From: a virus
Direction: 5' to 3' (one strand)
Virus genome (UHGV): UHGV-0121358
Length of the DNA: 54,213 bases
In this document: piece by piece, positions 1 to 53,813 of the stretch
How the letters are laid out: the number at the start of each line of letters is the position of its first letter
How positions within the stretch are numbered: position 1 is the first letter of the stretch
Made by a program: the position numbers and the translations under genes
The notes under the pieces: model-generated
The model's input: the letters and a program-made list of their open reading frames with translations, nothing else
Databases searched by the model: none
What the model was told of the DNA's origin: nothing

Positions 1-1392
1 ATGTACCTCACAAAGAACCGTAAAAGGAAGATTATAAAGGTTATTCTTGATTGGGGCTGTCACCATATCGCTTGCGCGCGTCGCCGCCGTCGTTTCTGAT
101 ATAATAAAAGATGATGCGCAAGGGCCATTTTCAACCTGGGGGGTAGCCAGATAAATATAGTCACCAGATTCAACGACGCCACCAGATTTTGGTGCGTATT
201 GTATTGCAGAGGTTATGTAAGTTTCTTCACTTGCTTGAATCGTTGCCTCTACAAAAATCCAGCCCGCAGCTTCATCTTTGTTAACTCGTGCGGTAAGCCT
301 GTCGGCAGCTACACCAGTGATTTCAACCAATAAAGACCGCGTATTAACAATGGCATATCCAAGATTAGATGAAGCGCTGCCATCGAAGGCTTCAAACCTG
401 ATCCTTAACAGGAGTTCCAGATCCGTTTTAAATCTGCACGATGTCGTCACACACTTATTATCGCCTGATACATCGACAGCCCCCGAGGTTGAAACTACTG
501 CCATATTAAGGGCTGTACTTTGCCCAATTAATGATTCATTACAAACAAACTTTCCATAAGTAAAACCAAAACTATCAGTTCCAACCTCAGCGATATTCAT
601 ATTTGCAGATTTACCCCAAGAAGCTGGAGTTGCTGAATTCAACATGTAGTTTGTTCGCTGACCTTCAATCAATAAACCTTCTTTTTCAAATCGTGGCTCA
701 TTAATTTCCGCCGTTTTCAGTTCGCCAGATTTGTTGATATATGTTGCCGTTGATGCGCGACTGAAATTAACCTGTTTATCACTGGCAACCTGAACCACAT
801 TATCACCAATCTTCACTTTTTTATAACCCGGAGAATAGCCCGTAATCATATCCAGCGAATCATTAAAGGGCATCCACACATCCGGCAGAGGCTGTAAAAC
901 ATACGCGTAAGGCTGCGCCGTCTGATTGGCGTATTCGTGGGCTTCGTCTCTGTATGTCTTAGCTGAATCTGCGGCGCTTGTCGCTGTTGTTGCAGCGTTG
1001 GTTGCAGTTGTAGCTGATTCTGATGCTAATTTTGAGGCTGAAATTACATCTTTGTTGTCGCTGAAAAACTCCACAGCGTCCGCTATTTCTGATTCTTTGC
1101 CCTGATAGTAACGCAGTGTTTCTGCAACATCCTGAGCAAGACCATCCACAGAGATCGAATCTGAAAGCAGGATGCTAAATTTAGTCCCAGCCGGAATAGA
1201 CGGACTTGCCGCCGGAGTTACCGACAAACTTGTTGCGCTTTTTACTTCTGTAATTGAGAAAATCTGCACCGGATTGCTAATGGCAATAAGAGTGCAACCA
1301 ACTCTGATCAGAGATAACGCGGCATTGAATTCAGTCCCTGTTCCGGTAACTGTGTTTCCGCTAACGGCTATCGTGCCAGTTGTGTAAATCAT
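1..1392 (-). CDS. side tail fiber protein, 5' portion (gene continues past window start)
   Basis: Own minus-strand translation: ATG at 1390-1392 with GGAG 8 nt upstream; uninterrupted 464-codon frame to the window edge (MIYTTGTIAVSGNTVTGTGTEF...). Lies directly downstream of J, as stf does in lambda. Absent from ORF track because no stop lies inside the window. Confidence 0.55.
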   Translation of the reverse strand, partial: MIYTTGTIAVSGNTVTGTGTEFNAALSLIRVGCTLIAISNPVQIFSITEVKSATSLSVTPAASPSIPAGTKFSILLSDSISVDGLAQDVAETLRYYQGKESEIADAVEFFSDNKDVISASKLASESATTATNAATTATSAADSAKTYRDEAHEYANQTAQPYAYVLQPLPDVWMPFNDSLDMITGYSPGYKKVKIGDNVVQVASDKQVNFSRASTATYINKSGELKTAEINEPRFEKEGLLIEGQRTNYMLNSATPASWGKSANMNIAEVGTDSFGFTYGKFVCNESLIGQSTALNMAVVSTSGAVDVSGDNKCVTTSCRFKTDLELLLRIRFEAFDGSASSNLGYAIVNTRSLLVEITGVAADRLTARVNKDEAAGWIFVEATIQASEETYITSAIQYAPKSGGVVESGDYIYLATPQVENGPCASSFIISETTAATRASDMVTAPIKNNLYNLPFTVLCEVH

Positions 1393-1602: not shown

Positions 1603-4600
1603 TTATGCTGTAGTTGATGCGCTGAATGATCCTGTTCCTCTTGATACTAGCATTGTTGGAGAATACAAAGCTGTACAATATGAGTAGCCTTCTGATGCTG
1701 ATGTTTGTGGGCAATATATTTGCCCGGTAATACTTGATGCCGTTAAACCAGAAAAAGCGCATTGCACTGTTAATGTGCATCCACCATAAGGAACGTAATA
1801 TTGAATTGTTTTACTTTTACCTCCGCAACTAAACGTTACGTTATAAGTTGATCTATATTCACCAGATGCTAATGAAATCGTCGCCATAAGCATAACTGAT
1901 TTCCTCAATGGACTATCCGTGCTGTCGTTATATGTGATGGTTGCGTTATAACTTCCGTTATACCCAAGCACTCGATCTGGACCAACCCCCATGTTAGCAA
2001 CATCACCAACAAACGTTTTAGCTTCCACCGTTCCTGTGAATTTACCGCTACTTGCATACACCTTGCCCCTTACAGTTACGTTGTTGAACTCCGCGTTGCC
2101 ATTTTTATCAATCATCCACCCGGCAGATCCTGATGCGTAGTTTGTTGACTGTATTCGCTGTGCAATCTTAGCGGTAGTGATAGCTGCATCTGCAATTTTA
2201 GCCGTCCCTATTGATGCGTCTTTAATAAACGCTTCGCGCACATACATTGCGCCATTGGTGACATAGAAAGGCGATTGATATGTGCCGTTTGCCGCAGTCA
2301 TTAACACGAAGCGATCAACCAGGAAAATACACTGCGATTGAAAGTTAGTCCCGTCACCAGTAAGGCCAAGCGACATACCTGTTGCGTATGTTCTGCCGTT
2401 GCTATCTGTTGCCAGCTTGATTGAATACGACGCATCTACATTACCTTTAAAGTCGGTAAGCGCTTTCGATGTTGTCTCTATAGCGGTTTTGTTCCCGTTA
2501 ACGGTCACTGTCAACTGATCAATTTTGCTTGATAATGCTTCGTCAGCCGTTGCCATAGCCTGCGACCATTCCGTGATGCTTGAATTTACATCTTCGAAAG
2601 ACGCCGAGATCTGGACAAATTTTTCAGCGCTTGATGCCTCGTGATTTGCGAGTGCCGTTGAGACATCCATTATTTTTGCTGAAATGTTTTCATTAATATT
2701 TGCCTCAAGCGATGCTATAGCCTCCGCGCGGGCCTGGGTTTCGTCTGCTATTGCTGTATCGATCCTTGCTATTTCCGCTTTTGTTTTTATCTGGCCTTTC
2801 CTGTATTTCGCCTCAATAACAGTGCCCATCTTGCTTTGCGCTATTGAGTTGTTGATAAGTGCAATCGAGGCGTTTTGCAGACTTGCTTTCGCCTGTTCTA
2901 TCTTGTCGCTGTTTTTATCAACATCACTTTCAACAGAACCAAGCTCCGCGCTGATGCCTGATATTGCCTGTGCGCGGGCGCTTGATTCATCGGCAATCGC
3001 CTGATCCAAGCGTTTAACGCTGGCGTTCGTGCTATTTTCAAGCGTTGTTAAATCAGCCTTAACATCCGTTATTGCGTCGCTTCTTGCCTGCGTTTCATCT
3101 GATATTGCTTTATCAAGGCGGGAAACGCTGGCGTCAGTTTTCTTATCAAGATTGCTTATTGCTGCGTTTACACCGTTAATAGCTTCAGCGCGGGCGCTGG
3201 CCTCGTCAGCAACTGCGCGTTGCACGTTAGAGATTTGGCCTTTAAGGTTGGAATCCATCGTATTCATTTCTGCCGTGATGGTTTCCAGTGATTCCGCAGT
3301 CGCTTTTTTCTCTTCAGCGATAACGTTGTCAATACGGTCAATTTCCGCCTTCGTCTCTGTTCTACCTTTTTTGTACTGAGCGGTAAGAGTTACACGGGTG
3401 TTAGTCTGTGCAAGTGAGTTATTAATAAGAGCAATAGAAGCGTTTTGCAGGCTTGCTCTTGCTTGCGCCAGTTCGCTGTCAACTTTTTCGCTAGATACCT
3501 CCAGCGAGTCTATTCTAGACTCATGCTGTCCAATATCATCGGCGTTTTCCTTAACCTTTTTATAAAGATCTTCCGTTTCTTTTTTAAGTGTATCCGTGTC
3601 AGCTTTTATTGACCCTGTTTCTGTGATTAGGTTGTCAGTAGCAGTTTTAAGGTCATTCGTAGCGCTTTCGATAAGATCGGTGCGGTCGCCAAGATCCTTA
3701 ATATCACTTACCATTCCCTTAAATTGCTCTGAATTCATCACGTCTTTGGTGACGTAATCGGTGATTTCATCAAAGTTTTCTGTTGGCTTGCCTGATGCTT
3801 CAACGAAGTCTGACACACCAAAGGCATTACGCGTGCGCACATAAACGTAATAGGTGTGCCCCGTGTTCATGCCGCCAAAAGTCCACTGATGACCACGCCC
3901 GGTATATTGTGCTTTAGTGGTTACTGATGCCGGATCGGTGATTTGTGTTTCACCTGAGTAATAAAACTCATAACTAGTGTCAGTGGTAAGCGTTGTTCTG
4001 CTGATCGGGTAAACTGTAGCCTGAAATACACCGGGAACCCAGTTAACTCCTACCGGGGCCGCTGGTGCGCCAATAACCAGATCCACAATGCTTTCCGCAC
4101 CCTTCATGCCCGTGTCATTTCTGCCACGAATGCCTAGTGAGTAGTTGCCAGCATCAATACCATAAAAATCATAACTGTAATTCGTAGTTTCGTAGCTTTT
4201 AACTACGGCCCCCTCTGAATTATATACGCGGATTTCAAATGTCAGGCGATGAGTTGTCGTCAGTGTTTCCCATGTTGCGCGGCATTGAACTGTTTCAGAT
4301 CCAATATTTAACACCTTCAGGTTTTCAATGTTCGGTACGCGGAAGTGATTAAGCGTGTCGTTGTTGACCTCAAAGATTGCGCCATTATCTACTACAGCCT
4401 GTTTGTGCGGGTCATGCTGTGATGCCTCTACAGTGTACACGCTATTATTTTCTGTTTCTGCTACGCTGGTGATTCGACACAATACGGGTTTTGCTGCGTT
4501 AGTTGACACAGCAAATACAGTACCGTTACGAATCCATGCCGGGGCGGATGCAAGGGTAATTTTATTTCCGCTAACTCCGGTGATCTGGTGTTTTTTAAAT

Positions 4601-6183
4601 TTGCCATCACTATCAAGCAGGCTGATGGTGTCACCAGGGGCGATATATTCAGAATCAACTTTATCGACCGTGATAACCCTGCCATTGTTTGCCACGATGC
4701 GACCGCCTAAACGAGCGCCTGCGCGGTTATTGTCGAGTATCTCGATAATATCACCAGGGGTGAAGTGAATTGCGTCACGGGCCATTTTAAACGTGAATTT
4801 TGACGGCTCGCGTTTTGCTGTTTCTATCAGCCATTTGCCAGCGCGGTACGCTTGCCCGCGTGACGTGCAACCGAAAGCCTCTAGCGTGGTTTCGTTATAA
4901 CCATCGCGGGCGATCAGTTCATCATCTGCCACATATTCTTTTGATTGCTCCCAGCCGTTTTCTGGGTCAGTCCATGATACGATCACGGCGTTGTAACATT
5001 CTGCAAGCGGAAGGCTTGAGCGAGTAAACGCGCCATCAACGACGTTTGCATTTGTGATGGTGGCAATTGGATCTTGTGGCGCATCAATCATCACGGTAAG
5101 GCGTTGCCCGTCCCATAACGCGATGCCACGGAACATACCTGCGATGTTATCCAGTAGGTCGCGGGCGCTCATTTGCTCCGTAATGTAAGCGTTGAGAGTC
5201 ATGCGAGGTTCAAGGCCACCATAGCCATCATCAACCAACTGATCGCAGTATTGAGAAAGCACATACAAAGCGCCATCATCAACATCAATGTAACCAGCAT
5301 GTCTAGCAAGCCCAAAGCGCTCGTTTTTAACCAGATACCGGAAAATCCACGCAGGGTTATTGGTGTACGCTTTTTTGAATCCACCAAGCCATAAACCCGA
5401 ATATGTGCGCGTTTCTGTGTTGTAGTTATCAGGAACATCAACAATCAGGCCGCGAAGGTGATAGGTACGGGTGGGCGTATCAGTATACTGATCATGGTCA
5501 ATTACAGCGCCAGCCACGGCGGTATGAGGATAAGACAGGTTATCATCTATTATTTCGCTGTAACTACTCCACCGCGTATCATTCCGCAATAGATCGCTGT
5601 TGCTGTCTGCTGTTATGCGACGAACGCGAATATCAAACGGCTTTTCATCAGGCGCGTTGATAACGTGAGCTTCCAGGTATTCACCACTCTGTTTACCAGG
5701 CCCGATTGTAATGTATTTAACAGGCGACCACGTCGATGATAATGATGGCTTAACATCAACCATTAACACAACGGATGTATTGTATTGATTGCCCTTATCA
5801 TCTGACTGAACGAGAGCATCAACACCAAGATTCAACCTGACGCGGGTAACGTTTGGATCTGAAACAGTCCTGATTATTGGCGTGTCGTGAGTTACCTTTG
5901 CGTTGACGATAACGGTTGATTCGATGGCATTAAAACCATTAATCGGCGATTGGTCAGCCGTGCCGTTGCGCCAGGCTATACTAATCCCCGGGATTGATGT
6001 ATTCCCGTTTGCGTCAGTAACAGGTGTGTCATTAAGCATCACATCATTTAGTGGCGCCTTCTGGTTTACCGGACCGTATATCGGCCCTTCGCTGAGAATA
6101 TCTAAAACACGATAAAACTGTTTATGATACAGGTTATCGTTTAATAATACTGGTGTCTTGGCTTTGCCGCCGCCGCTACTCAT
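1603..6183 (-). CDS. J: host specificity / central tail fiber protein J (tip attachment), 1526 aa with expanded coiled-coil middle region
   Basis: Track ORF. N-terminus and several blocks (GPIYGPV, DTPIIRT, WSSYSEIID, RTYHLRGLIVDVPDNYNTETRTYSGLW, FGCTSRGQA, HFTPGDIIEILD) match my recollection of lambda gpJ; sits after I/K/L as in lambda. Confidence 0.9.
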   Translation of the reverse strand: MSSGGGKAKTPVLLNDNLYHKQFYRVLDILSEGPIYGPVNQKAPLNDVMLNDTPVTDANGNTSIPGISIAWRNGTADQSPINGFNAIESTVIVNAKVTHDTPIIRTVSDPNVTRVRLNLGVDALVQSDDKGNQYNTSVVLMVDVKPSLSSTWSPVKYITIGPGKQSGEYLEAHVINAPDEKPFDIRVRRITADSNSDLLRNDTRWSSYSEIIDDNLSYPHTAVAGAVIDHDQYTDTPTRTYHLRGLIVDVPDNYNTETRTYSGLWLGGFKKAYTNNPAWIFRYLVKNERFGLARHAGYIDVDDGALYVLSQYCDQLVDDGYGGLEPRMTLNAYITEQMSARDLLDNIAGMFRGIALWDGQRLTVMIDAPQDPIATITNANVVDGAFTRSSLPLAECYNAVIVSWTDPENGWEQSKEYVADDELIARDGYNETTLEAFGCTSRGQAYRAGKWLIETAKREPSKFTFKMARDAIHFTPGDIIEILDNNRAGARLGGRIVANNGRVITVDKVDSEYIAPGDTISLLDSDGKFKKHQITGVSGNKITLASAPAWIRNGTVFAVSTNAAKPVLCRITSVAETENNSVYTVEASQHDPHKQAVVDNGAIFEVNNDTLNHFRVPNIENLKVLNIGSETVQCRATWETLTTTHRLTFEIRVYNSEGAVVKSYETTNYSYDFYGIDAGNYSLGIRGRNDTGMKGAESIVDLVIGAPAAPVGVNWVPGVFQATVYPISRTTLTTDTSYEFYYSGETQITDPASVTTKAQYTGRGHQWTFGGMNTGHTYYVYVRTRNAFGVSDFVEASGKPTENFDEITDYVTKDVMNSEQFKGMVSDIKDLGDRTDLIESATNDLKTATDNLITETGSIKADTDTLKKETEDLYKKVKENADDIGQHESRIDSLEVSSEKVDSELAQARASLQNASIALINNSLAQTNTRVTLTAQYKKGRTETKAEIDRIDNVIAEEKKATAESLETITAEMNTMDSNLKGQISNVQRAVADEASARAEAINGVNAAISNLDKKTDASVSRLDKAISDETQARSDAITDVKADLTTLENSTNASVKRLDQAIADESSARAQAISGISAELGSVESDVDKNSDKIEQAKASLQNASIALINNSIAQSKMGTVIEAKYRKGQIKTKAEIARIDTAIADETQARAEAIASLEANINENISAKIMDVSTALANHEASSAEKFVQISASFEDVNSSITEWSQAMATADEALSSKIDQLTVTVNGNKTAIETTSKALTDFKGNVDASYSIKLATDSNGRTYATGMSLGLTGDGTNFQSQCIFLVDRFVLMTAANGTYQSPFYVTNGAMYVREAFIKDASIGTAKIADAAITTAKIAQRIQSTNYASGSAGWMIDKNGNAEFNNVTVRGKVYASSGKFTGTVEAKTFVGDVANMGVGPDRVLGYNGSYNATITYNDSTDSPLRKSVMLMATISLASGEYRSTYNVTFSCGGKSKTIQYYVPYGGCTLTVQCAFSGLTASSITGQIYCPQTSASEGYSYCTALYSPTMLVSRGTGSFSASTTA

Positions 6184-6196
6184 GGTTTTTCTCCTG

Positions 6197-6727
6197 TTAA
6201 CTTACAACGTCTAGAGCGTCTCTGTTATTACTTGTGTCTATGCCTAACGACCCGACGTTTGAACCTATTTTCATTTCGCCCAACAGGATCGGCACTGGTC
6301 TACCCTGGCCTACCTTGTTTTCAATGCTGGTGTAGGTGTTATTAGATATGGTGTTATCTTGTGCGCTTTCTGCTGATGTTTTTATCTTCATGTTGCGAGA
6401 CATAAAGATCGAGAACGCAACGCTAACAACCGAAACACCGATCAAAATCCAGCCTACAACGCCAATTCCTGCAATACCGCCTTCCACCACTGGCGCAACA
6501 ATGACAGTAGTCCCGTCCGGGTATTTACTGTTAACCGCTGCTGGCGCGGTCTTTTCGTCATAATCTTTCCCGGCAATTCGTAAGCGCAACGGAGTGCTTA
6601 AAAACGCCTTTTTGAACTCATGATTCTGCGCAACCAGCAAGCCAAGTCCTTGCGCTGGCGTATCAACGTTTAAACACACCTTGCCGTAATATCTTCGAAG
6701 ATTGCCCGTAAATCTAAATTTGAGCAT
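6197..6727 (-). CDS. I: tail assembly protein I
   Basis: Track ORF; position between K and J; C-terminal ILLGEMKIGSNVGS resembles lambda gpI (VLYGEMRVGSRV). Confidence 0.75.
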   Translation of the reverse strand: MLKFRFTGNLRRYYGKVCLNVDTPAQGLGLLVAQNHEFKKAFLSTPLRLRIAGKDYDEKTAPAAVNSKYPDGTTVIVAPVVEGGIAGIGVVGWILIGVSVVSVAFSIFMSRNMKIKTSAESAQDNTISNNTYTSIENKVGQGRPVPILLGEMKIGSNVGSLGIDTSNNRDALDVVS

Positions 6728-7407
6728 TTGTCAGATCTCCATATTGAGTTGGTCTGTCGAACATACGCGGGCCGCATTTGTTCGCGGCGGCTTAACAGTC
6801 CGGCATTGTCATGATGCAAAACAGTGTTATCGCCCAGGTAAATCATCGCGTGACATGGGTCAGCGCCTTTAAACGGCTGGCGGATAATCACATCACCAGG
6901 CTGAATACTTTTCGCGTCAACCATGAAAAACCCGTTCAATGGCAGGTTTTTTATGTACAGGTTTTCCCCACGCAGCCACCATCCGTCGTGGCGTTCAAAA
7001 TCCGGTAGATCCACGCCGCAAAGGTGATAGGCGTCACGAAAAAGCGAGTAGCAGTCTGTTTTCCCGTGCTCAAATTTACGGCCTAACAGGTGCGCCACCG
7101 GGCGGAATTTTCTAACCCTGCCACCGGAACACAAATACCACGGCAGGCCTGAAATAACCTGCTGTTGTCGATCCCGTGCTGACAATACCAACGAATTGTC
7201 AGTATGGGAGTGAAAAACGGCAGTTATAACGCCTAATTCGTCAGCTTTGATATAATCGTCAGGCGAGATTTTAAAGCTGTTGTGCGGCGTTTCAGACACG
7301 TTGGCGCACGGGTAAAAATAATCGTTATCTATCACCAGCCCGCACACTTCCTCGCACTGGTGGGCTGCCGCATAGCGAATCATTTTATCTTCAAGTGCCA
7401 TAATCAA
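6670..7407 (-). CDS. K: tail assembly protein K (JAB/MPN plus NlpC/P60-like)
   Basis: Track ORF; JAMM-like HSHTDNS...S..D motif and Cys/His NlpC/P60-like residues (DCYSL, HHDN); overlaps L stop by 4 nt and I start as in lambda. Confidence 0.8.
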   Translation of the reverse strand: MIMALEDKMIRYAAAHQCEEVCGLVIDNDYFYPCANVSETPHNSFKISPDDYIKADELGVITAVFHSHTDNSLVLSARDRQQQVISGLPWYLCSGGRVRKFRPVAHLLGRKFEHGKTDCYSLFRDAYHLCGVDLPDFERHDGWWLRGENLYIKNLPLNGFFMVDAKSIQPGDVIIRQPFKGADPCHAMIYLGDNTVLHHDNAGLLSRREQMRPAYVRQTNSIWRSDKCSNLDLRAIFEDITARCV

Positions 7408-8108
7408 CCCACCTTACTGGACCCAGGGAAGCACGAAATCGGTAACGGATTCGGGCGTGGAAAACGCAAACGGCAACCGCTAAGGCGGTGGCTGCATTTG
7501 TCCAGCTTTGGATCACTGGTAGATTCGTCTTTATCGGTAGCTACAGGTCCACCACTATATCCGCAACCGTCGCCGCGATATTGCCATTGGCAAACGTCAG
7601 CGAGGATTGTGCGCCCTGGGATAACCGCCTTGTCAGCATCAATTGGCGTTGACAGTTCATATTGCACCTGGTCGGCTGTTTCTTCGCTCATCGCCTCAAC
7701 GACGTAAAAAGACACCGCCTCGATAGATGGATCTGCATCCGGGTTGCCGTTTGGGAAGTTGATGGCGTCCAGGTATTTTACTTCCACCTGGCGGCGTGTA
7801 ACCTTCATTCCTCGCAGGTCGTTGAAATCGTTGTTCATCCCGGTGATTAGCCCGCCAATGTTGGCTACTACCATCTGCGGGCGTGAGTAAACGCCTTCGT
7901 TTTTCATTTCGAAGCCAGTGGCCTCGATTGGGTAGCTGTTGTAAGTCACTCCCTTCCAGATAACCGGGCCGTAATAGCCATTCGCTCCGGAATGGAAGCG
8001 GATAACCTCGCCACCCATGGGCGTGAGGTCTAATTCAAACAAGTCAATGACCGCGCCGACTCCGGCATCGACGGAATCAATAATCATCTCTCTCGGAATA
8101 TTGCGCAT
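7404..8108 (-). CDS. L: minor tail protein L
   Basis: Track ORF 7404..8141 begins at a GTG; internal ATG (MRNIPRE...) has GGTGAG SD. C-terminal CGYSGGP...DKCSHRLSGCRLRF matches lambda gpL (CGYSGPA...DKCSKCLSGCKFR). Confidence 0.85.
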   Translation of the reverse strand: MRNIPREMIIDSVDAGVGAVIDLFELDLTPMGGEVIRFHSGANGYYGPVIWKGVTYNSYPIEATGFEMKNEGVYSRPQMVVANIGGLITGMNNDFNDLRGMKVTRRQVEVKYLDAINFPNGNPDADPSIEAVSFYVVEAMSEETADQVQYELSTPIDADKAVIPGRTILADVCQWQYRGDGCGYSGGPVATDKDESTSDPKLDKCSHRLSGCRLRFPRPNPLPISCFPGSSKVG

Positions 8109-8161
8109 TTTCTCACCTTGTAATTTTGTGATCTGCGTCACGCTAAATCATACCAAAACGG

Positions 8162-43272: not shown

Positions 43273-44325
43273 ATGAAGTGGTTTAAGCATGACAGCGATG
43301 CGAACCGCGATGAAAAACTTCAAAACGTTTTGTTAGATTATGGCCTGGAAGGGTACGGGCTTTATTGGTATTGCCTCGAACTAATAACTTATGACGTAGA
43401 TCAGCACAATCTGACTTTTGACCTACGACATGACGCGAGAATCATTGCGCGAAACGTCGGATCGACTGAAAAACGTATAGAAGAAATGATGAAATACTTC
43501 ATCGAAATTGGTTTGTTTGAATGTTCTCAAGGCCACATAACTTGTTTAAAGTTATTGAAAAGGCTTGACCAATCAATGACTTCTAAAAGCGCGTACAGGG
43601 CCGCCATAAACACAGCTAAGGAGCAATTAAAATTAGAAAAGTTAATCAATCCAACACAAAAAGGTCATGATAGGGTCATGACCGGGTCAGGAAAGGGTCA
43701 TGAATTAGAATTAGAAGTAGAAGAAGAAAGAGAAAAAGATATATACACTTCGTGTATTGTCGAAAATGAACAAAAAATGGTCAATCATGATGGCGTAAAC
43801 GAAGCGGCGTTGCGTTGCCTGGCCTTCTACAACGACAAGGCAGGATGCAAATGTCGTGATGCGAAGCCATTCATCGAACTACTGACAGAAACAAAAACAC
43901 GTAAAGCGTATACGGAGGATGAGATCACATTAGTGATTGAGTGGGCTTTAACGCAATGGCGTAGCCGTGGTGGAACACCTAAGCCTATCAATATTTGCCG
44001 GGTAACTAAATTTGATGGGTATCTGACTGATGCTGAACAATGGCGCAAACTGTCAGCCACTGCAAACGCTGCCGACGTGGTGGAAGCATTTAACAGCACG
44101 TTTGACGGCCTGTTACCACCTGTCGAACTGGATCGGGATCTTGAACGCAAGATCTATGCGTTCACTGACTACCTGAAAGACAAAAGCATTAACGGCTTTG
44201 TCGCCTACTTCGAAACATTCAAAAACACGGCTTCAGATTTTTACTTCGGCAATGGCTTCACAGCGACACTTGATTTCCTGCTTAAACCAAAAACGCTACG
44301 CGACACACGCGCAGGCGCTCTTTGA
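43273..44325 (+). CDS. replisome organizer / replication initiation protein (DUF4373-like N-terminus)
   Basis: Track ORF; N-terminus MKWFKHDSDANRDEKL...YGLEGYGLYWYCLEL matches the Lin1244/DUF4373 pattern as I recall it; followed by helicase gene. Confidence 0.7.
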   Translation: MKWFKHDSDANRDEKLQNVLLDYGLEGYGLYWYCLELITYDVDQHNLTFDLRHDARIIARNVGSTEKRIEEMMKYFIEIGLFECSQGHITCLKLLKRLDQSMTSKSAYRAAINTAKEQLKLEKLINPTQKGHDRVMTGSGKGHELELEVEEEREKDIYTSCIVENEQKMVNHDGVNEAALRCLAFYNDKAGCKCRDAKPFIELLTETKTRKAYTEDEITLVIEWALTQWRSRGGTPKPINICRVTKFDGYLTDAEQWRKLSATANAADVVEAFNSTFDGLLPPVELDRDLERKIYAFTDYLKDKSINGFVAYFETFKNTASDFYFGNGFTATLDFLLKPKTLRDTRAGAL

Positions 44326-44458
44326 CCAACCACGATTCGCAAAAATCCAAAATTACCCACAAAACAACCTCACCAGCGAGCTAAAACACGCATGGTGCTA
44401 CGATTGCATATCTTTAGCTATTTAGCTCGTTATAGAGCGTTTTAGAGAGGATTTTAAA

Positions 44459-44560
44459 ATGGACGGTAAACACGTTTTCGCCCTGGCCTTTGCCATCGCT
44501 GCTGCAATCGCTGTTAACGTCGCTTTGTTCGGCGGTTTGTTCCTTCTTATCAATCCATAA
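44459..44560 (+). CDS. possible 33-aa hydrophobic mini-protein (MDGKHVFALAFAIAAAIAVNVALFGGLFLLINP)
   Basis: Own translation; GAGAGGA SD 8 nt upstream. Confidence 0.3.
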   Translation: MDGKHVFALAFAIAAAIAVNVALFGGLFLLINP

Positions 44561-44713
44561 CCTTCATACCAGCCTGTAAATCAAAAATTAGCCACCTGAG
44601 AGCGCCTCTGACGCAATAAGACACTGCAACCTGTGCAAACGGGTTACGCGGTGGGATTTTTGCGTTGTAGCACGTCTGAGGCGTTATATATAAAATTAAG
44701 AAAAGAGGTACAT

Positions 44714-45769
44714 ATGATTGCCACTTATCATGTGAAACTAAATTGTAAGGACACGCAATTACTATCTGTTAATAATCTTGTTTCTGAACTTGAAATCGAT
44801 AGGCTTAAATCATTTGTTAAATACTCTGATCTTTACGGATTTGAGGAATACAAGGATTTTATTATTGATGGTGATGATGTGTATATCACACCTATAACGT
44901 TTATTAGATTCGTTACACCTGGTAAATATAGACATTATGAATATAATGAAAATTGGGTTAAGCCAGTTATTGAATCTTGTGGATTAGTTGATTTACAAGA
45001 TGTGTTTAATAAATATTCAAATAATACCAGAAAAGATAGTCCTTATGCTTATAATTATGTTTTATGGTGTAACAACTATGTTGAAACTAGTGATACTCCC
45101 GGGCGATGCTCTGTGTATGTGTCAAAGGAAGATGCTGAAAAGTATAAAAAATGGTTGTTCGTTACTCGCGGAGTATCAATAGAAAAACTATGGGTAAGGT
45201 TGTTTCATTCAAGCGATATTGCAGATCCAGATACGTTTTTAAATGAACATCTTAATAATGATGAGTTTACCATTGATTTAAATATTGAATATTTTACAGT
45301 TAAAACAAATTATGGATATGAAAGATATATTAGCGATAAGATAGCGGAAAAGTATCATACATGGGGTCAAAATAAAGGTCTTAGTAATAATTTTGAATGC
45401 GGTAATTATAACGACATAGAAAACTTTATTGAATTAAAAAGCGACAAGAATGTAATTGAGGAAATAAAAAGGGAATGTGACGAGAAATTATCAGAAATGA
45501 GTTATAATTGTAAAAATATGATTAGGAAGCGTTATGAACATGCTGGATTAACTATGTACGAAAAACTAAAAGGAGTTAAATTAATAAGGCAATATCCTGT
45601 TAATGTTGCTGGCAACAAGTATTTTATTGATGGCTACGATCTTGTGAATAATATTGCTGTAGAAATTGATGAATCACATCACAAACGGCAAGCAAAAAGC
45701 GATGCGATAAGACAAAAACGCATTGAGGATTATTTGGGGTGCAAGTTTTTTCGTTGTGCTATATCCTGA
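44714..45769 (+). CDS. AT-rich moron protein with C-terminal Vsr/DUF559-like PD-(D/E)xK endonuclease motif
   Basis: Track ORF 44633..45769 truncated to ATG at 44714 with AAGAGGTA SD; strongly AT-rich codons; C-terminus YFIDGYDLVNNIAVEIDESHH...D..R...I...LG..FFR. Confidence 0.6.
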   Translation: MIATYHVKLNCKDTQLLSVNNLVSELEIDRLKSFVKYSDLYGFEEYKDFIIDGDDVYITPITFIRFVTPGKYRHYEYNENWVKPVIESCGLVDLQDVFNKYSNNTRKDSPYAYNYVLWCNNYVETSDTPGRCSVYVSKEDAEKYKKWLFVTRGVSIEKLWVRLFHSSDIADPDTFLNEHLNNDEFTIDLNIEYFTVKTNYGYERYISDKIAEKYHTWGQNKGLSNNFECGNYNDIENFIELKSDKNVIEEIKRECDEKLSEMSYNCKNMIRKRYEHAGLTMYEKLKGVKLIRQYPVNVAGNKYFIDGYDLVNNIAVEIDESHHKRQAKSDAIRQKRIEDYLGCKFFRCAIS

Positions 45770-45803
45770 TGTATACAAAATGTAAACCTGAGGAATTAAC
45801 ATT

Positions 45804-46922
45804 ATGTCGCAAAGAAAAATCAGCGATGAGCAATTGATCGCTGAATATAACAACGGTTTAACGTACAAGCAGATTGCTGAAAAATATGGCATGTCAAAAC
45901 GCAATGTCGAGCGCCTGGGCGCAAAACTGGCGAAACGTGGTTTATTATCAACACGCCGCGCTCCTGGTTTTGGCGTCAATGGCGAGTCGTTGCTAGTCGA
46001 TAAGAACGGCAATGTTATCATGCGCTGGATTAAAACAGCCCGTGACCGCGAAGAAATGGAACAGCTAATGGAAGCGGCCCGCGACGCTTTCACTGATGAA
46101 ATACCACGCGCGGAGGCTGTGCCAGTGCCTGAAATTGATTTTCAAAAAAGCCTGGCACTTTATCCGGTGTTTGATCTGCATATCGGGGCGCTTGCTCATA
46201 AAGCTGAATGCGGTGAGAGCTACGATACTGGGATCGCTGAGCGCGTGTTGAATGACTTCTTTGACTACGCTGTTGGCGCTGCTCCGATGTCTGAAAAAGC
46301 TGTTTTACTTCTCGGCGGTGATGTGCTTCACACTGACGGCCTGTTACCAGTGACGCCATCAAGTAATCACGTTTTAGATTGTGATTCACGCTACGCAAAA
46401 CTGGTTTATGTGGCGATCCGGTCGGTCCGGCGTGCGGTCGGGAAGATGTTACTAAATCATAAGGATGTCGAGATCCAGGTATTATCCGGTAATCACGACC
46501 AATCAGGTATGATCTGGCTACGTGCTGCGCTTGCGGCTTTTTACGAAGATGAGCCGCGCGTGACTGTTGACGTGTCACCTGCCATTGTCCACCACACACA
46601 GTATGGCAAAACATTCCTTGCTTACCACCACGGGCACACTATCAAAAAGCCGGAAAATTTATTGTCTGCTTGCGTAGCTGACTGGCGGGAGGATTTCGGA
46701 AGGTCTGTGGCTGTTTACGCTCACACTGGACATCTGCACCATCAATCAGTTGTTGAAACATCACTTGGAATAGTTGAGCACCACGGCACATTAGCTGGCA
46801 AAGACGCATATTCAACTAATGGCGGCTGGCGGTCGCGGCGTCTGGCAGCGGTGATTATTTACAGCCCGGATCATGGGGAAATTGGGCGCTTTGTTTATTA
46901 CCCTGAATATTCCATTTTGTAA
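45804..46922 (+). CDS. HTH-containing calcineurin-like metallophosphoesterase
   Basis: Track ORF; GAGGAA SD; N-terminal HTH (LTYKQIAEKYGMSKRNVERLGAKL); phosphoesterase motifs DLH, GGDVLH, GNHD, GH-H. Confidence 0.65.
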   Translation: MSQRKISDEQLIAEYNNGLTYKQIAEKYGMSKRNVERLGAKLAKRGLLSTRRAPGFGVNGESLLVDKNGNVIMRWIKTARDREEMEQLMEAARDAFTDEIPRAEAVPVPEIDFQKSLALYPVFDLHIGALAHKAECGESYDTGIAERVLNDFFDYAVGAAPMSEKAVLLLGGDVLHTDGLLPVTPSSNHVLDCDSRYAKLVYVAIRSVRRAVGKMLLNHKDVEIQVLSGNHDQSGMIWLRAALAAFYEDEPRVTVDVSPAIVHHTQYGKTFLAYHHGHTIKKPENLLSACVADWREDFGRSVAVYAHTGHLHHQSVVETSLGIVEHHGTLAGKDAYSTNGGWRSRRLAAVIIYSPDHGEIGRFVYYPEYSIL

Positions 46923-46940
46923 ACCGGAGGCAATAACATA

Positions 46941-48362
46941 ATGGTAACTGAGCAAATAAACTCACTACGGCAGGAACGTGAAGCGTCAGTTATCGGCGGG
47001 CTACTGTTAGGTGGCCTTACTCCTAACGCGCAAGATGTTCTCGCCACACTTGATCCTGAAGTGTTCACGATCCCGCTTTATAAACGTGCGTTTGAAGTTA
47101 TCCGGGCGCAAGCCAGAAACAGAAATCTTATCGACGCGTTATTGGTTGGCGATGAGATTGGCAATGAAAACTTTGTACCGCTAATGCAAACGGCACGATC
47201 GTGCCCTTCTGCTGCCAACCTGAAAGGATATGCGCAACTACTACAGGAAGAACACCAGCGTCGGCAAATGCTGGAACTAATGGAAGACATTCGCTACAAG
47301 CTGGAAACAGGGACGCTTGAAGTCGTCAGGGAGACGATGAAAGATTTTGATTCCCGGTATTCAAAATTAAAGGTAACAAAAGATCAAATTATCCCGGTGC
47401 TGTTGCGCGATGCGGTCCAGGAATACACGGAAGTGTTAAGTAAACGCATGGAGTGTGGCGTGAACTCTGACAACATCAAAACAGGGATTGACCCACTCGA
47501 CGAAATGTTAGGCGGCATTAACGCTACTGATCTGGTGCTTATCGCCGGACGCCCAGGGTCTGGTAAATCGGCGTTGGCGTTGGCAATTGCCCGCGCGGCG
47601 GCTGAACGCCCATACCCTGGAGGCGAAGGTCAGCGGGTCGGCGTTTTGCTGTTCACGCTTGAAATGTCGCTCGATCAGATGACTGAACGCGCTATCGCTG
47701 GCGCAGGGAACTTGTCAACGGATTGCTTACGTAATCCGGTAAAACTGGATGACGAAGGATGGGCGCACGTTGCCCAGGGAATGAGCGCACTTGCTGATCT
47801 CGATGTGTGGATTGTTGATGCATCACAGTTAACTGTCGAGGAAATACGCGCCACAACTGAACGAATGAAGCAGGATTATCCCAACCTGGGTATGGTAATG
47901 ATTGACTACATCGGGTTAATGAAGCTGGCTAAGGCAGAACGTCACGATCTCGCTGTAGGGCAATTGTCGTGGTCATTGAAAATGATGGCGAAAGAATTGC
48001 GCGTACCAGTGGCGGCGCTGGCGCAATTATCCCGCCGCGTCGAGGAACGACCGAACAAGCGACCGAACAATTCTGATCTGCGCGATTCCGGCAATCTTGA
48101 ACAGGACGCAGACCGGATCATCATGGTATACCGCGACGGCTACTACAACGAACAATCTGTTGCACGCGAATACATGGAGATTATCGTTTCAAAAAACCGT
48201 CACGGAAAAACCGGGACTGTTTACCAGCGTTTTGACGACAACGGCAACATATTACCGTGTGACCAGGCCCGCGCGGCGTCAGCTTGCATCCAGTCAATGC
48301 AACAACGTCCGGCGGTAAGCCGATTCTCGCCACGAAACAACCAGAATAAAGCATCTTTTTAA
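46941..48362 (+). CDS. replicative DNA helicase (DnaB family)
   Basis: Track ORF; GGAGG SD; Walker A GRPGSGKS, Walker B-like VMIDYIGLM, and C-terminal motifs typical of DnaB-type helicases. Confidence 0.9.
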   Translation: MVTEQINSLRQEREASVIGGLLLGGLTPNAQDVLATLDPEVFTIPLYKRAFEVIRAQARNRNLIDALLVGDEIGNENFVPLMQTARSCPSAANLKGYAQLLQEEHQRRQMLELMEDIRYKLETGTLEVVRETMKDFDSRYSKLKVTKDQIIPVLLRDAVQEYTEVLSKRMECGVNSDNIKTGIDPLDEMLGGINATDLVLIAGRPGSGKSALALAIARAAAERPYPGGEGQRVGVLLFTLEMSLDQMTERAIAGAGNLSTDCLRNPVKLDDEGWAHVAQGMSALADLDVWIVDASQLTVEEIRATTERMKQDYPNLGMVMIDYIGLMKLAKAERHDLAVGQLSWSLKMMAKELRVPVAALAQLSRRVEERPNKRPNNSDLRDSGNLEQDADRIIMVYRDGYYNEQSVAREYMEIIVSKNRHGKTGTVYQRFDDNGNILPCDQARAASACIQSMQQRPAVSRFSPRNNQNKASF

Positions 48363-48441
48363 TTAACTTGAGCAAACGGCTTACCGGAAAGTTTACCGCT
48401 TTCTGGTGGCTGTTTTCGCGCTTAAATTGAGGCTAAAAACA

Positions 48442-48999
48442 ATGAGCATTGAACTTGAAACAAAAATTATCAACATCCTTGAACTGGATGGCATCGACAC
48501 AATGCAGCAGTTACGCCAGAAAACAGGATTATCAGCGGAATATGACGAAGCAGGATGCTTGCCTGAGACAATTAAACACTTAATCGACACTGGCATTGTC
48601 GAGCGTGTATATACATATTTCGGACCACGCCGCCGCTTGCTTGGTTATCGGATTAAATATTTGTATGCACAACGTCGCGATCGTGTGGCGGCGTTATTTA
48701 GTGACTACAGCGTCAAAAAGCGTATGCGTGACATTAGCGCTGAAACAGGTATCCCGTGGAATTATCTTTCGCGCACCCTGCGTTTAATGGTGCTTGATGA
48801 GACACTTTGCATTGATACAAATAAACATGGCCTTAATTTTTATTCACTGTTTAAACCTGGGCGCTTCGGTCACGCTAATGATCTTGCATTTGATTTTGAC
48901 AGCCGCCTGAATGAATACCGGAAAAATAACGGCCTGCTGCCGGATAAACCAGTATTTGAGATCGAAAAACTTAATGGTGAAACTGGATTGGAATTATGA
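48442..48999 (+). CDS. hypothetical protein
   Basis: Track ORF 48406..48999 begins at GTG; in-frame ATG at 48442 with GAGG SD. Confidence 0.5.
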   Translation: MSIELETKIINILELDGIDTMQQLRQKTGLSAEYDEAGCLPETIKHLIDTGIVERVYTYFGPRRRLLGYRIKYLYAQRRDRVAALFSDYSVKKRMRDISAETGIPWNYLSRTLRLMVLDETLCIDTNKHGLNFYSLFKPGRFGHANDLAFDFDSRLNEYRKNNGLLPDKPVFEIEKLNGETGLEL

Positions 49000-49202
49000 G
49001 ACGTGTAATCTTTTATTTAGTTGAAACATTCATTGATGAATCACATTTCCGTTTCCCATGCAATTCTTGCGGCGCGATGGTTTATACACCGCCACTAATG
49101 CGGAAATATAAACACGTAAAATTTAACCGGTTTTTTGTACCAATGCGTGATGCACTGCGCGCGCTGCGCGGTGAATTACGAAACACAATGCGTATTGTGT
49201 GA
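48996..49202 (+). CDS. hypothetical small protein
   Basis: Track ORF; start overlaps previous stop (ATGA). Confidence 0.4.
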   Translation: MRRVIFYLVETFIDESHFRFPCNSCGAMVYTPPLMRKYKHVKFNRFFVPMRDALRALRGELRNTMRIV

Positions 49203-49211
49203 GGTGGCGTT

Positions 49212-49409
49212 ATGGATAAGGAATTAGATTTAACAGTTGAAGACCTGAGCACGATTGCGGAATACATGCGCGGCGATGATCCTGATCGTCCTGTCGTCGT
49301 TGATATGAAAAAACTAAAAAACGACCATATGGCTAGTTCAAGGCTCATTTCTTTATGGGCGATCATGTATGCGCGTGCACCGCGTGAAAATAGTAACGGT
49401 GTATCATGA
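49212..49409 (+). CDS. hypothetical small protein
   Basis: Track ORF; GAGGTGG SD. Confidence 0.4.
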   Translation: MDKELDLTVEDLSTIAEYMRGDDPDRPVVVDMKKLKNDHMASSRLISLWAIMYARAPRENSNGVS

Positions 49410-49837
49410 AACAAATTAGATTTGAAATAGTTAATGACGCTGTGAAAGAAAATGCTATCAGGCAGATAATGGAAATACAGCCTGATAGCAAAAGCCCGCT
49501 GATAATTACCATCCAGGAGAAAACCCGCTCGCTGAGTCAAAATGCGTTGCTTTGGGCGCTGTTAACCGACATTAGCGATCAGGTTAATTGGTACGGTAAA
49601 AAGCTATCGCCGGAAGACTGGAAATCGGTATTCACTGCCGGGCTTAAAAAATATGGCGTCGTCCCTAATTTGGATAAATCAGGCTTTGTTGTGCTGGGAA
49701 CGTCAACCAGCCGGATGAGTAAATCAGAATTCAGTGAACTAATAGAACTGATCTACTCGTTCGGCGCGGAACATGATGTTCAATGGTCGGGTGATACGAA
49801 ATTAAATGATGAATTCATAAAACGCTGGGGGCAATAA
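49406..49837 (+). CDS. ninB: NinB (Orf-family recombination mediator)
   Basis: Track ORF; blocks FEI...QNAI, ITIQE.TRSL.QNALLWA, VFTAGLKKYGVVPNL, GFVVLGTSTSRMSKSEFSELIELI match lambda NinB as recalled. Confidence 0.85.
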   Translation: MKQIRFEIVNDAVKENAIRQIMEIQPDSKSPLIITIQEKTRSLSQNALLWALLTDISDQVNWYGKKLSPEDWKSVFTAGLKKYGVVPNLDKSGFVVLGTSTSRMSKSEFSELIELIYSFGAEHDVQWSGDTKLNDEFIKRWGQ

Positions 49838-50013
49838 TGGTTAGTTATTACATGGCTAGATCAACGGGGATTTTGTACAAAATAGATCGCCATACGGTGT
49901 ACTACTTCAATAATCAAGCGAATGAATGGCGGGAATGTTTTTCTAAGTTTAAATCTGAAATAGAAAACAACCATGAATATTACATTAAGGTTGACAATGT
50001 AACCGTGGCGTAA
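49837..50013 (+). CDS. hypothetical small protein (58 aa)
   Basis: Own translation (below track cutoff); ATG overlaps NinB stop by 1 nt. Confidence 0.35.
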   Translation: MVSYYMARSTGILYKIDRHTVYYFNNQANEWRECFSKFKSEIENNHEYYIKVDNVTVA

Positions 50014-50027
50014 TTGAGGATAAATAA

Positions 50028-50684
50028 ATGAGTGAATCTAAAGCAATTGGCGTGATTAGCCATCGCACTAACCCTGAATGCTACCCATCGTTTGAAGTAT
50101 CGACATGCAGGGAAGAATATAATTTTGGATCATGTTATTTGGTTGGTGTTCGCGCTGATCGCGACACTTATTCTGTTATGGCGGCAAGCTGGAAGTTTGA
50201 TAAATATGCCAATTTATCTAATAAAGATGATGATGGCATGAATAAAGAAAGTGAAATCATTGACGAATTAATCGAAGATGAGCGGCATGATTGCGATACG
50301 CCAGAAGTTACGGAATGGATGGCAGGAGAAAAGCCTCCATGCGGAGTATGGCTTGAGCTTCTAGATCCTGTCGATGGTCGGAAATATGTTATTCTGAAAT
50401 ACAAGTATATAAGTGATCGCCTTGCTCTTTTTGTAGAAATGGATGCGCCTGATTTTGAACAAGCCGGGGAATGGAAGCATTTCGCTCATAAGTTGTATGT
50501 AGATCCGAAAGAAAAAACACTGGCTGAAATTGCGTTTGCACTTGCTACTAAGGTTATCGGCGAAGATGCTGCAAAAGAAATTGATTTTAACCGCGACAAC
50601 GAATTTTCGTGCGATTATCGCAATATGGCGCAAGCTATTATAGACGGATGTATAGGACACGTTGAATATACGGGTGGTGAATAA
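50028..50684 (+). CDS. hypothetical protein (218 aa)
   Basis: Track ORF; GAGGA SD. Confidence 0.5.
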   Translation: MSESKAIGVISHRTNPECYPSFEVSTCREEYNFGSCYLVGVRADRDTYSVMAASWKFDKYANLSNKDDDGMNKESEIIDELIEDERHDCDTPEVTEWMAGEKPPCGVWLELLDPVDGRKYVILKYKYISDRLALFVEMDAPDFEQAGEWKHFAHKLYVDPKEKTLAEIAFALATKVIGEDAAKEIDFNRDNEFSCDYRNMAQAIIDGCIGHVEYTGGE

Positions 50685-50902
50685 TGGATAAGATCGGGAC
50701 AATACTTATTAATCGTGAGCAAGTGCAAAAAATGTTAGGCGGGCTTAGTAAGTCCGCCTTTTTTAAGCTCGTTAAAAAATGGAAAGATTCTGGAACTCCT
50801 TTTCCTGAACCTGTTAAGGGGATGCCAGCATTAAAGCGCGGCGGATCTCTTTACCGTTATCAGGACGTTATTTCATTTTGTAAATCAATGGGCTTCATGT
50901 AG
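50684..50902 (+). CDS. AlpA/excisionase-like small DNA-binding protein
   Basis: Track ORF; INREQVQKMLGGLSKSAFFKLVKKWKDSGTPFPEPVK fits the AlpA/Xis HTH pattern; 3' end overlaps the integrase 3' end on the opposite strand. Confidence 0.55.
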   Translation: MDKIGTILINREQVQKMLGGLSKSAFFKLVKKWKDSGTPFPEPVKGMPALKRGGSLYRYQDVISFCKSMGFM

Positions 50903-52059: not shown

Positions 52060-52105
52060 AATTTGGTCACTATTTGGTACACACATTTTATGCATGGATA
52101 GTATC

Positions 52106-52198
52106 ATGATAGAAAACGATATGACACGATAGAATAAATATTTCTTTTAGAATCAATATGAAGCGGTGACGATGTGACACGATATGAAATGATAGAAA
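52106..52198. repeat. direct repeats upstream of integrase (candidate arm-type sites)
   Basis: ATGATAGAAA at 52106-52115 and 52189-52198; TGACACGATA at 52122-52131 and 52175-52184. Confidence 0.4.
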
Positions 52199-53413: not shown

Positions 53414-53614
53414 TCACCAGCTACACAGTATATACACACTGACGCTGACAGTAGTCAGCAGGACCACAATAATCAGTGCCAGCAGTATGGTAACGATACG
53501 GTCTGTATTCCGGTAATAGCCGAAGGGGTCGACAGAACCACAATACGGGCAACACACTGTATTATGAGTAATCGCGTTTCCACAGTCCCTGCACTTCTTT
53601 TTGCGTATCACCAT
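53414..53614 (-). CDS. small zinc-ribbon membrane protein
   Basis: Track ORF 53414..53617; ATG at 53614 with GAGGAGGG SD; CRDCGN...CPYCG then C-terminal hydrophobic helix. Confidence 0.4.
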   Translation of the reverse strand: MVIRKKKCRDCGNAITHNTVCCPYCGSVDPFGYYRNTDRIVTILLALIIVVLLTTVSVSVYILCSW

Positions 53615-53813
53615 CACTCCCTCCTCACAGCCTTACCCGTAACCGGTTTTTTACATTAAAAAAACAACGCTGAAAATTCAACCGTCAGTCCGGAGACGAC
53701 CGTTCGGGTTATCACAGAGTGCCTGAGACAGTGTCCTGCCGGAGGTCACCTCAGGGGCTCTGCGCATTTTTTACGACGTGGTTATTCCGTATGAACCATA
53801 CGGAGATTTAACC

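Follow-up and report, generated by a model that had tools for sequence, protein, structure and literature searches.

Modular expansion of the alpha-helical shaft in the central tail fibre protein J of an mEpimmI-group siphophage genome

Gene J of UHGV virus genome UHGV-0121358, a stretch of 54,213 nucleotides analysed here as a whole and referred to as the window, encodes a central tail fibre (tip attachment) protein of 1526 amino acids (aa), compared with 1132 aa for gpJ of phage lambda. This difference raises the question of where the additional residues lie, how they are organized, and what they may contribute to infection. A preliminary description of the window had recognized the excess length, which was borne out, and had ascribed it to a coiled-coil insert. 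The extra residues do fall within one helical stretch; however, they occupy the exact position of the short alpha-helical shaft (AHS) of lambda gpJ and represent an expansion of this existing domain, approximately 408 aa here versus 53 aa in lambda, rather than an inserted foreign segment.

In the favoured explanation, to which a probability of roughly 0.7 is assigned, this region is the AHS of a trimeric central tail fibre of an mEpimmI-group siphophage, grown by the stacking of modules, and the rod that it forms would be metastable, its refolding being proposed by analogy with F-type pyocins and lambda.

Organization of the expanded shaft

The J gene and its parts are listed below by window coordinates, strand, and the basis of each assignment.

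1603-6183, minus strand: gene J, central tail fibre / tip attachment protein, 1526 aa plus stop (open reading frame (ORF) list, translation, Pfam, phmmer)
3751-6183, minus strand: J aa 1-811, hub with FNIII-A, Ig_J and Ig_J_second, the conserved tail-tip cone part (Pfam; alignment to lambda gpJ 1-857; 89-98% identity across the group)
2527-3750, minus strand: expanded AHS, J aa 812-1219, 408 aa (no Pfam family, no Pro or Cys, periodicity, predicted helix, skipped by the lambda alignment)
3496-3708, minus strand: acidic heptad-repeat zone of LKTATDN-type units, aa 826-896 (periodicity 3.5, negative net charge, unit number variable in the group)
3235-3495, minus strand: module A, first duplication copy, aa 897-983, with a unique head (LQNASIALINNSLAQTNTRVTLTAQYKKGRTE) and a diverged 36-aa repeat at 948-979 (dot plot, BLASTP, hidden Markov model (HMM))
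2926-3234, minus strand: three tandem 36-aa repeats, aa 984-1086, the last of which overlaps module A' as far as aa 1091 (HMM; dot-plot offsets 36 and 72)
2671-2925, minus strand: module A', second duplication copy, aa 1087-1171, with a head (LQNASIALINNSIAQSKMGTVIEAKYRKGQIK) and a 36-aa repeat at 1138-1171 (dot plot, BLASTP, HMM)
2527-2670, minus strand: distal helix running into the prism and conserved across the group, aa 1172-1219 (group alignment block; predicted helix to aa 1216)
2032-2526, minus strand: beta-prism, the central straight fibre (Phage_Tail_Tip domain), aa 1220-1384 (PF09327, predicted strands from aa 1220, Foldseek)
1606-2031, minus strand: variable C-terminal receptor-binding domain (RBD), aa 1385-1526 (group alignment, diverging after about aa 1380)

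The relationship of J to lambda gpJ (PDB 8IYK chain J) is supported by a phmmer E value of 1.7e-180 and by five gpJ domains identified in Pfam, namely FNIII-A_GpJ (88-214), Phage-tail_3 (335-492), Ig_J (609-707), Ig_J_second (709-811), and Phage_Tail_Tip (PF09327, 1234-1381, E = 4e-39). Between the last two, aa 811-1234 were assigned to no Pfam family, and a Pfam search with the shaft sequence alone returned only sub-threshold matches to generic coiled-coil families. A precomputed family, PF28217, appears on some shaft homologues. The alignment to lambda gpJ is split in two, gpJ 1-857 being matched by J 1-850 and gpJ 838-1002 by J 1228-1400, and about 380 residues of J are left without a lambda counterpart, all of them in a single stretch that separates the FNIII/Ig domains from the tail-tip fibre domain. 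In the published domain scheme, lambda gpJ consists of a hub, FNIII-1 and FNIII-2, the AHS (809-861), a beta-prism, and the RBD (Ge and Wang 2024, PMC11101478). Because lambda gpJ aligns with both flanks and already carries an AHS between them, the additional length is attributed to growth of that domain. The same order, that is, hub, two FNIII/Ig domains, helical shaft, beta-prism (Phage_Tail_Tip), and C-terminal RBD, is present in J according to Pfam, structure prediction, Foldseek, and the group alignment.

The modules stacked in the shaft are acidic heptads, a pair of A modules, and a 36-aa repeat present five times. The preliminary description had pointed to two near-identical segments about 150 residues apart, and both are present, at aa 897-967 and 1087-1157. 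The elements quoted for the first segment are QARASLQNASIALINNSLAQ (aa 907-926, window 3406-3465) and KAEIDRIDNVIAEE (aa 945-958), matched in the second by QAKASLQNASIALINNSIAQ (aa 1097-1116, window 2836-2895) and KAEIARIDTAIADE (aa 1135-1148). The segments begin 190 aa apart, with a gap of 120 aa, and near-identity is confined to the first 20 aa (18/20), the copies being 54% identical over 68 aa in BLASTP. The duplication itself is real: a self dot plot gives a single long diagonal at offset 190 over aa 897-967, and a BLASTP search of J with unit A recovers the second copy far above chance (E = 9e-21). It is nevertheless part of a larger system, as indicated by the further dot-plot offsets of 36, 72, 82, 118, and 154. 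Likewise, the interval 2500-3500 that had been proposed covers most of the repeat region (aa 894-1228), whereas the whole shaft extends over 2527-3750. At the DNA level only 59 nucleotides of the two copies can be aligned, at 80% identity, which rules out recent slippage or recombination between the A copies; judged by this divergence, the duplication is old.

An HMM constructed from 68 distinct units of the phage group, with the consensus VSRLDKAIADETSARAQAISGVNASISTLESKTDAS, locates the five 36-aa repeats of J at 948-979 (diverged), 989-1019, 1020-1055, 1056-1091, and 1138-1171. Each A module consists of a distinctive head of about 45 aa (…LQNASIALINNSxAQ…YKKG/YRKG…) followed by one common 36-aa repeat. 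The composition of aa 812-1233 is rich in Ala (14.5%) and Ser (10.9%), with Thr, Asp, Glu, and Ile at 8.5% each, and is devoid of Pro and Cys. The hydrophobic pattern has a period of 3.5 residues across the heptads and of 3.6 across the 36-mers, the latter value being one that would fit 36 = 2 x 18 = 2 x (7+11), the spacing of a nearly straight helical bundle. The heads of the A modules (aa 908-955 and 1100-1147; window 3319-3462 and 2743-2886) are the sole net-positive stretches of the acidic shaft, and each contains a Gly (G940, G1130) at a helix break in one of the structural models described below.

Structure prediction was performed with AlphaFold2 (AF2) on monomers, using 13 sequences for aa 800-1240 and 80 sequences for aa 1087-1400. 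The first model comprises helices at 819-938, 943-1128, and 1135-1222, with a predicted local distance difference test (pLDDT) score of 72-91 in the helices and a mean of 73.5, separated by breaks at KGRT (939-942) and KGQIKT (1129-1134), one per A head. The second model comprises a single unbroken helix at 1088-1216, mostly with pLDDT above 90, followed by strands from aa 1220 (1220-1228, 1231-1243, 1249-1261), so that a long helix directly precedes a short seed of prism strands. The predicted breaks at the A heads are not robust, because the model with the deeper multiple sequence alignment (MSA) runs the helix continuously through A'. Together with the periodicity of 3.5-3.6, these models agree with the helical, coiled-coil character that had been proposed for the extra length. 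A Foldseek search with the beta part matched the central tail fibre of lambda in its open state (8XCJ/8XCI) with E values of about 1e-7. As a straight parallel coiled coil, the shaft would measure approximately 61 nm.

Variation of the shaft within the mEpimmI group

Positions 1-25000 of the window, on which the group assignment rests, are 86-87% identical over 76-83% of the query to mEp010, mEp044, mEp554, mEp013, mEp021, and MagusPhagus. By this similarity the window is assigned to a temperate siphophage prophage of Escherichia coli belonging to the mEpimmI group (mEp021-like), described in Front Microbiol 2025 with the members mEp013, mEp010, mEp021, mEp515, mEp044, mEp554, and MagusPhagus (PMC11893012). 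The best match of J is the J protein of mEp013, with 88% identity over the full length, and 35 of 5426 complete E. coli genomes carry related J genes.

For comparison, 17 J proteins were collected from annotated phage and E. coli records (6 from phages, including that of the window, and 11 from prophages), and six were aligned in detail; homologue searches with the shaft or with A' plus prism yielded only fragments shorter than 760 aa. All 17 proteins are long (1350-1914 aa), and the window's J lies in the lower-middle of this range, so the expansion is not the singular feature of this J that the preliminary description had implied. Shaft length was measured between fixed anchors, from the end of FNIII-2 to the first prism strand, in 16 of the 17 proteins, the remaining one lacking the anchor motif. 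The shortest shaft has 282 aa and the longest 859 aa, and the correlation between shaft length and J length is r = 0.96. By these anchors the shaft of the window measures 450 aa, compared with 439 aa in mEp515, 450 in mEp013, 651 in mEp010, 773 in mEp021, and 859 in the prophage of strain 190.

The 16 proteins contain up to two A modules (one in eight proteins and none in one) and between 0 and 13 of the 36-aa repeats, while the group alignment places 0 to 5 extra 7-aa units in the heptad zones of mEp515, mEp021, and mEp010. The second A copy exists in two forms, of which that of the window (…SKMGTVIEAKYRKGQIK…) is common only to mEp013 and N25 among the 17 J proteins, the other form being 73-79% identical to the first copy. 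The relatives differ mainly in module copy number, and shaft length is therefore a polymorphic trait of the group. Neither length nor repeat content is uniform among the group's J proteins in the alignment of homologues that the preliminary description had proposed as a check.

This variation has already been published in outline, since the J proteins of the group were reported to "display a different size" and to contain "repeats of different length", after which a conserved stretch leads to a variable terminus (PMC11893012). The same pattern, consisting of a conserved N-terminus, a length-variable repeat region, a conserved stretch, and a variable terminus, was found in the six-protein alignment and the 16 module counts. 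The J of the window is ordinary in itself and constitutes a new allele of a known type. The exact protein occurs on five independent contigs, is present in metagenome and Logan assemblies, and belongs to a two-member cluster, with no NCBI-sourced entry. An HMMER search with the shaft core (aa 897-1217) against 1.84 billion representative proteins returned 101 matches at E <= 1e-3 and four at E <= 1e-30. Two of them, the J-like proteins P0093 (1922 aa) and P0098 (2411 aa) from public metagenomes, have a Phage_Tail_Tip domain starting at residues 1769 and 1999, respectively, which would imply shafts of about 950 aa or more, far longer than that of the window.

The variable terminus is shorter than had been supposed. 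Instead of the C-terminal 200 aa or so, the variable and putatively receptor-binding part comprises about 142 aa and follows a conserved beta-prism of about 165 aa. Compared with mEp013, the hub of the window's J is 96% identical and the shaft 92%, whereas the last 142 aa are only 40% identical. The RBD of the window is 85% identical to those of prophages in strains N25, M1/5, LP-26, and GN04592, 40% identical to that of mEp013, which uses LamB, and 20-44% identical to others. J therefore reads as a mosaic in which a hub and shaft of mEp013 type are combined with an RBD type of uncharacterised prophages. Among the published members, mEp010, mEp013, mEp044, and mEp554 require LamB, and mEp021 and mEp515 require OmpA (PMC11893012). 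The RBD type of the window is carried on shafts of 450 aa in N25, 579 in M1/5, 651 in LP-26, and 615 in GN04592. Shaft length and RBD type thus assort independently, which argues against the shaft setting receptor choice, and the suggestion that the expansion alters host range finds no support.

The J of the E. coli UMNK88 prophage (1680 aa) lacks the prism-start anchor motif, and two small hypothetical genes plus cor lie downstream of it; Ecol_244 has the same downstream arrangement, and its J carries just a 9-aa C-terminal tail after the prism. These two J proteins may be variants with a separately encoded RBD.

Possible refolding of the shaft and alternative explanations

Two well-studied systems provide the basis for a proposal on the function of the shaft. 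Upon binding of lambda to LamB, the AHS flips by approximately 180 degrees, and parts of residues 809-861 become beta-sheet atop the prism (PMC11101478). In the F7 pyocin, a three-stranded coiled coil of 163 residues in the J-like fibre converts wholly to a triangular beta-prism on cell contact, after which the tip opens and the tape measure is ejected, while mutants blocked in prism formation assemble without killing (PMC12874032). The same preprint defines a per-strand motif, SxSxxMxxLxS, predicts the switch in 21 of 24 siphophage fibres, and names mEp390 and HK639 (PMC12874032). The structure of the F2 pyocin contains the same long shaft, with side fibres docked at a Gly kink (PMC13455828).

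By analogy, three J chains would form a parallel coiled-coil rod of about 60 nm, presenting the prism and the RBD far below the tail tip. Receptor binding would cause the metastable rod to refold into additional layers of the beta-prism, with each 36-aa repeat supplying one beta-hairpin of two antiparallel strands, and this refolding would shorten the fibre several-fold, pull the mouth of the tube to the outer membrane, and open the tip. If about 300 aa were switched, a coil of about 45 nm would become roughly 17 strands and a prism of about 8 nm, taking 0.15 nm for each helical residue and 0.48 nm for each strand and assuming that each chain forms one meander.

The pyocin motif offers a means of examining this proposal. 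In either orientation, it matches J 18 times, always within aa 915-1226, and the matches alternate between forward and reverse at spacings of 15 and 21 residues. Composition shuffles gave 4.5 +/- 2.1 matches, with none of 1000 reaching 18, and shuffles preserving a register of 7, 11, 18, or 36 residues likewise gave 0/1000. The shaft holds 4.3 matches per 100 aa; for the hub of J, the side fibre, and the window's helical tape measure protein (781 aa), the corresponding values are 0.4-0.9. In addition, residues 964-1062 of the F2 pyocin fibre align with J 1129-1229 in a single HMMER domain (E = 4e-26, 94.6 bits), although this score may derive mostly from the adjoining prism, and no pyocin match was obtained for the upstream 300 aa of the shaft.

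Several points weigh against this explanation. The 18 motif matches are not independent, since they lie in homologous repeats, the motif is defined in a single 2026 preprint (PMC12874032), and both AF2 runs yield the helical state alone, with no beta state of the shaft, in monomer models whose predicted template modelling (pTM) score is 0.38 in each case. For these reasons, the conversion of the J shaft from coiled coil to prism is regarded as plausible rather than proven. Furthermore, lambda J has no motif matches, and according to the F7 authors neither lambda nor T5 undergoes the same extensive switch (PMC12874032). Electron microscopy (EM) of the mEpimmI phages gives a capsid of about 60 nm and a tail of about 130 nm, with no mention of a long tip fibre (PMC11893012). 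The trimeric state, the parallel packing, and the length of 60 nm are themselves proposals, the AF2 models being of monomers. Still more tentative, and held at somewhat less than even confidence, is the idea that the mEpimmI shafts are the longest known coiled-coil to beta-prism "springs" of the F-type pyocin kind, with tandem 36-aa units that would each form one beta-hairpin.

The alternative that survives best, although it is considered rather unlikely, regards the shaft as a passive spacer, a stable trimeric coiled-coil rod that sets the reach of the RBD past side fibres, O-antigen, or capsule without refolding, the tip opening by bending as in lambda. The coiled-coil periodicity and the exclusively helical AF2 models are what a permanent rod would produce, and a roughly three-fold range of shaft length on the same hub, including shafts of 450-651 aa with the same RBD type, is compatible with a variable spacer, as is the fact that lambda functions with a shaft of 53 aa. 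Such a spacer, however, leaves the enrichment of the fold-switch motif in alternating orientation unaccounted for, as well as the possible homology of the distal shaft to that of the pyocin (again with a score possibly due mostly to the prism). Even the short lambda shaft partly turns to beta structure on receptor binding, and a rigid rod of 60-120 nm would keep the mouth of the tube far from the membrane unless it were bent or collapsed.

A proposal that would fit either a refolding or a passive shaft, but that is itself doubtful, concerns the A modules as landmarks, either kinks or docking sites for side tail fibres, modelled on the kink at Gly955 of the F2/F7 pyocin shaft that anchors three side-fibre trimers. 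Pyocin side fibres do attach at the shaft kink (PMC13455828, PMC12874032), the helix breaks of one AF2 model at KGRT and KGQIKT fall in the A heads, these heads are alone in being net-positive, and the side fibre gene adjoins J. On the other hand, the helix is continuous through A' in the deeper-MSA model, the number of A modules varies from 0 to 2 in the group, the pyocin site has the reverse charge polarity, and the N-terminus of the side fibre resembles the adaptor of a Klebsiella-phage depolymerase, with no match to a pyocin side fibre among solved structures.

It is very unlikely that the shaft folds back on itself as an antiparallel bundle, with the chain reversing at each A module (down, up, down) and the fibre becoming thicker rather than longer. 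The first AF2 model, with breaks at both A modules that delimit helices of 120, 186, and 88 residues, the folded-back six-chain coiled coil of the Ur-lambda side fibre, and the absence of a long tip fibre from the published EM description would agree with such a bundle. The helices are nevertheless unequal in length, the break at A' disappears with the deeper MSA and pTM is only 0.38, the shafts of the F2 and F7 pyocins are parallel three-stranded coils, and in group members with one A module (8/16) or none (1) the prism and RBD would point the wrong way.

An artefact or decay, that is, misassembled repeats or a degenerating J in a defective prophage, is ruled out for practical purposes despite the proneness of repeat-rich genes to assembly errors and the deletion of the neighbouring exclusion lipoprotein gene, since the 1526-codon ORF is intact, the same architecture with a 450-aa shaft occurs in plaque-forming mEp013 and in prophage N25, the exact protein lies on five independent contigs, and the DNA copies (80% over 59 nucleotides) are too diverged to be collapsed or expanded in assembly.

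The extra length of J belongs to the AHS, a domain now implicated in triggering and powering the penetration of the envelope by non-contractile tails. Within the group this domain differs by entire modules against an unchanged hub and, in several cases, an unchanged RBD. Should the fold switch be true, the group would constitute a natural experiment on shaft length versus reach, stored energy, and the infection of hosts with thick surface layers. It would also offer a ready-made length series, with shafts of 282-859 aa on nearly identical hubs and of 450-651 aa with the same RBD type, in which the scaling of stored conformational energy and fibre contraction with repeat number could be tested in a non-contractile tail. 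The modular shaft additionally represents a practical template for the engineering of fibre length.

Neighbouring genes and comparison with known systems

The genes flanking J are as follows.

6197-8141, minus strand: upstream tail-tip assembly genes, I-like (6197-6727), K-like C40 peptidase (6670-7407), and L-like (7404-8141) (ORFs; synteny and annotation in mEp013 and E. coli prophages)
1-1392, minus strand: side tail fibre gene, first 464 codons, running off the left end of the window (translation; 96% DNA identity to annotated side tail fibre genes)

J directly follows the L, K, and I genes, a placement that is syntenic with annotated genes of mEp013 and E. coli prophages. In mEp021 and mEp515, an HNH ORF of 188 aa lies where the I-like gene adjoins J; the window lacks an HNH endonuclease gene at this position (6184-6196). 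The interval between the stop of J and the start of the side fibre gene (1393-1602) contains no intact superinfection-exclusion lipoprotein gene. In mEp013, N25, and most group members, an lpp or cor gene of 81-82 aa lies in this gap on the opposite strand, and a 9-aa remnant of the C-terminus of an N25-type Lpp is found in the window at 1502-1528 on the plus strand.

The adaptor domain found in capsule depolymerases of Klebsiella phages (7VYV, 7LZJ) is homologous to the N-terminal 156 aa of the side fibre (E = 3e-28), and residues 210-455 of the side fibre bear a weak likeness to the RcGTA head spike fibre (6TB9); Pfam returned nothing for the N-terminus. The distal side fibre parts of group relatives differ, being annotated with a head spike fibre domain or with a pyocin knob/S74 peptidase. 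At the other end, positions 44000-54213 match a group prophage region annotated with a tyrosine integrase, and a 415-aa ORF is present at 50860-52107 (minus strand), not itself identified as an integrase. Part of this interval finds matches in about 3766 of 5426 E. coli genomes, a frequency compatible with a junction between prophage and host close to the right end.

The closest known systems are the mEpimmI phages, whose structural module is syntenic with that of the window, with a DNA identity of about 86-87% across some 20 kb. The J of mEp013 has the same shaft length (450 aa by the comparative anchors) and the same module set, including the rare A' variant, and differs in its RBD, only 40% identical over the last 142 aa. 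The window is further distinguished from most of the group by the missing exclusion lipoprotein gene downstream of J and, from mEp021 and mEp515, by the missing HNH gene upstream.

Lambda gpJ (8IYK, 8XCI, 8XCJ) shares the domain order of J, and its hub, FNIII, and Ig domains align end to end, but it has neither 36-aa repeats nor A modules, and its RBD is not detectably similar to that of the window. Other J-like fibres longer than that of lambda, namely T1 gp33 (PDB 9L9P, PMC11945409; 1172 aa) and HK97 gpJ (1296 aa), have shafts much shorter than that of the window's J, with an overall identity to J of about 30%. Residues 850-976 of T1 gp33 align to module A' and the following helix, including the motif IADETQAR, and HK97 J displays the same alternating motif pattern with a 32-aa period. 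The C-terminus of T1 gp33 is unresolved in the structure and has been modelled only, at about 37 nm (PMC11945409).

The F-type pyocins (F7, PMC12874032; F2 PyoF10, PDB 25VF, PMC13455828) likewise possess a J-like fibre with a long three-stranded helical shaft before the beta-prism, a trimer being proposed for J as well. Residues 964-1167 of the F2 fibre align to J 1129-1336, the distal shaft included, and the SxSxxMxxLxS motif defined on the F7 fibre is enriched in the J shaft. With about 163 aa, however, the pyocin shaft is shorter than the 408 aa of J, and tandem 36-aa repeats are not part of its description, whereas the J shaft is clearly repetitive, and the receptor-binding parts of the pyocin are separate proteins, whereas the RBD of J is fused. 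The fold switch and the docking of side fibres have been demonstrated for the pyocin, while both are putative for J.

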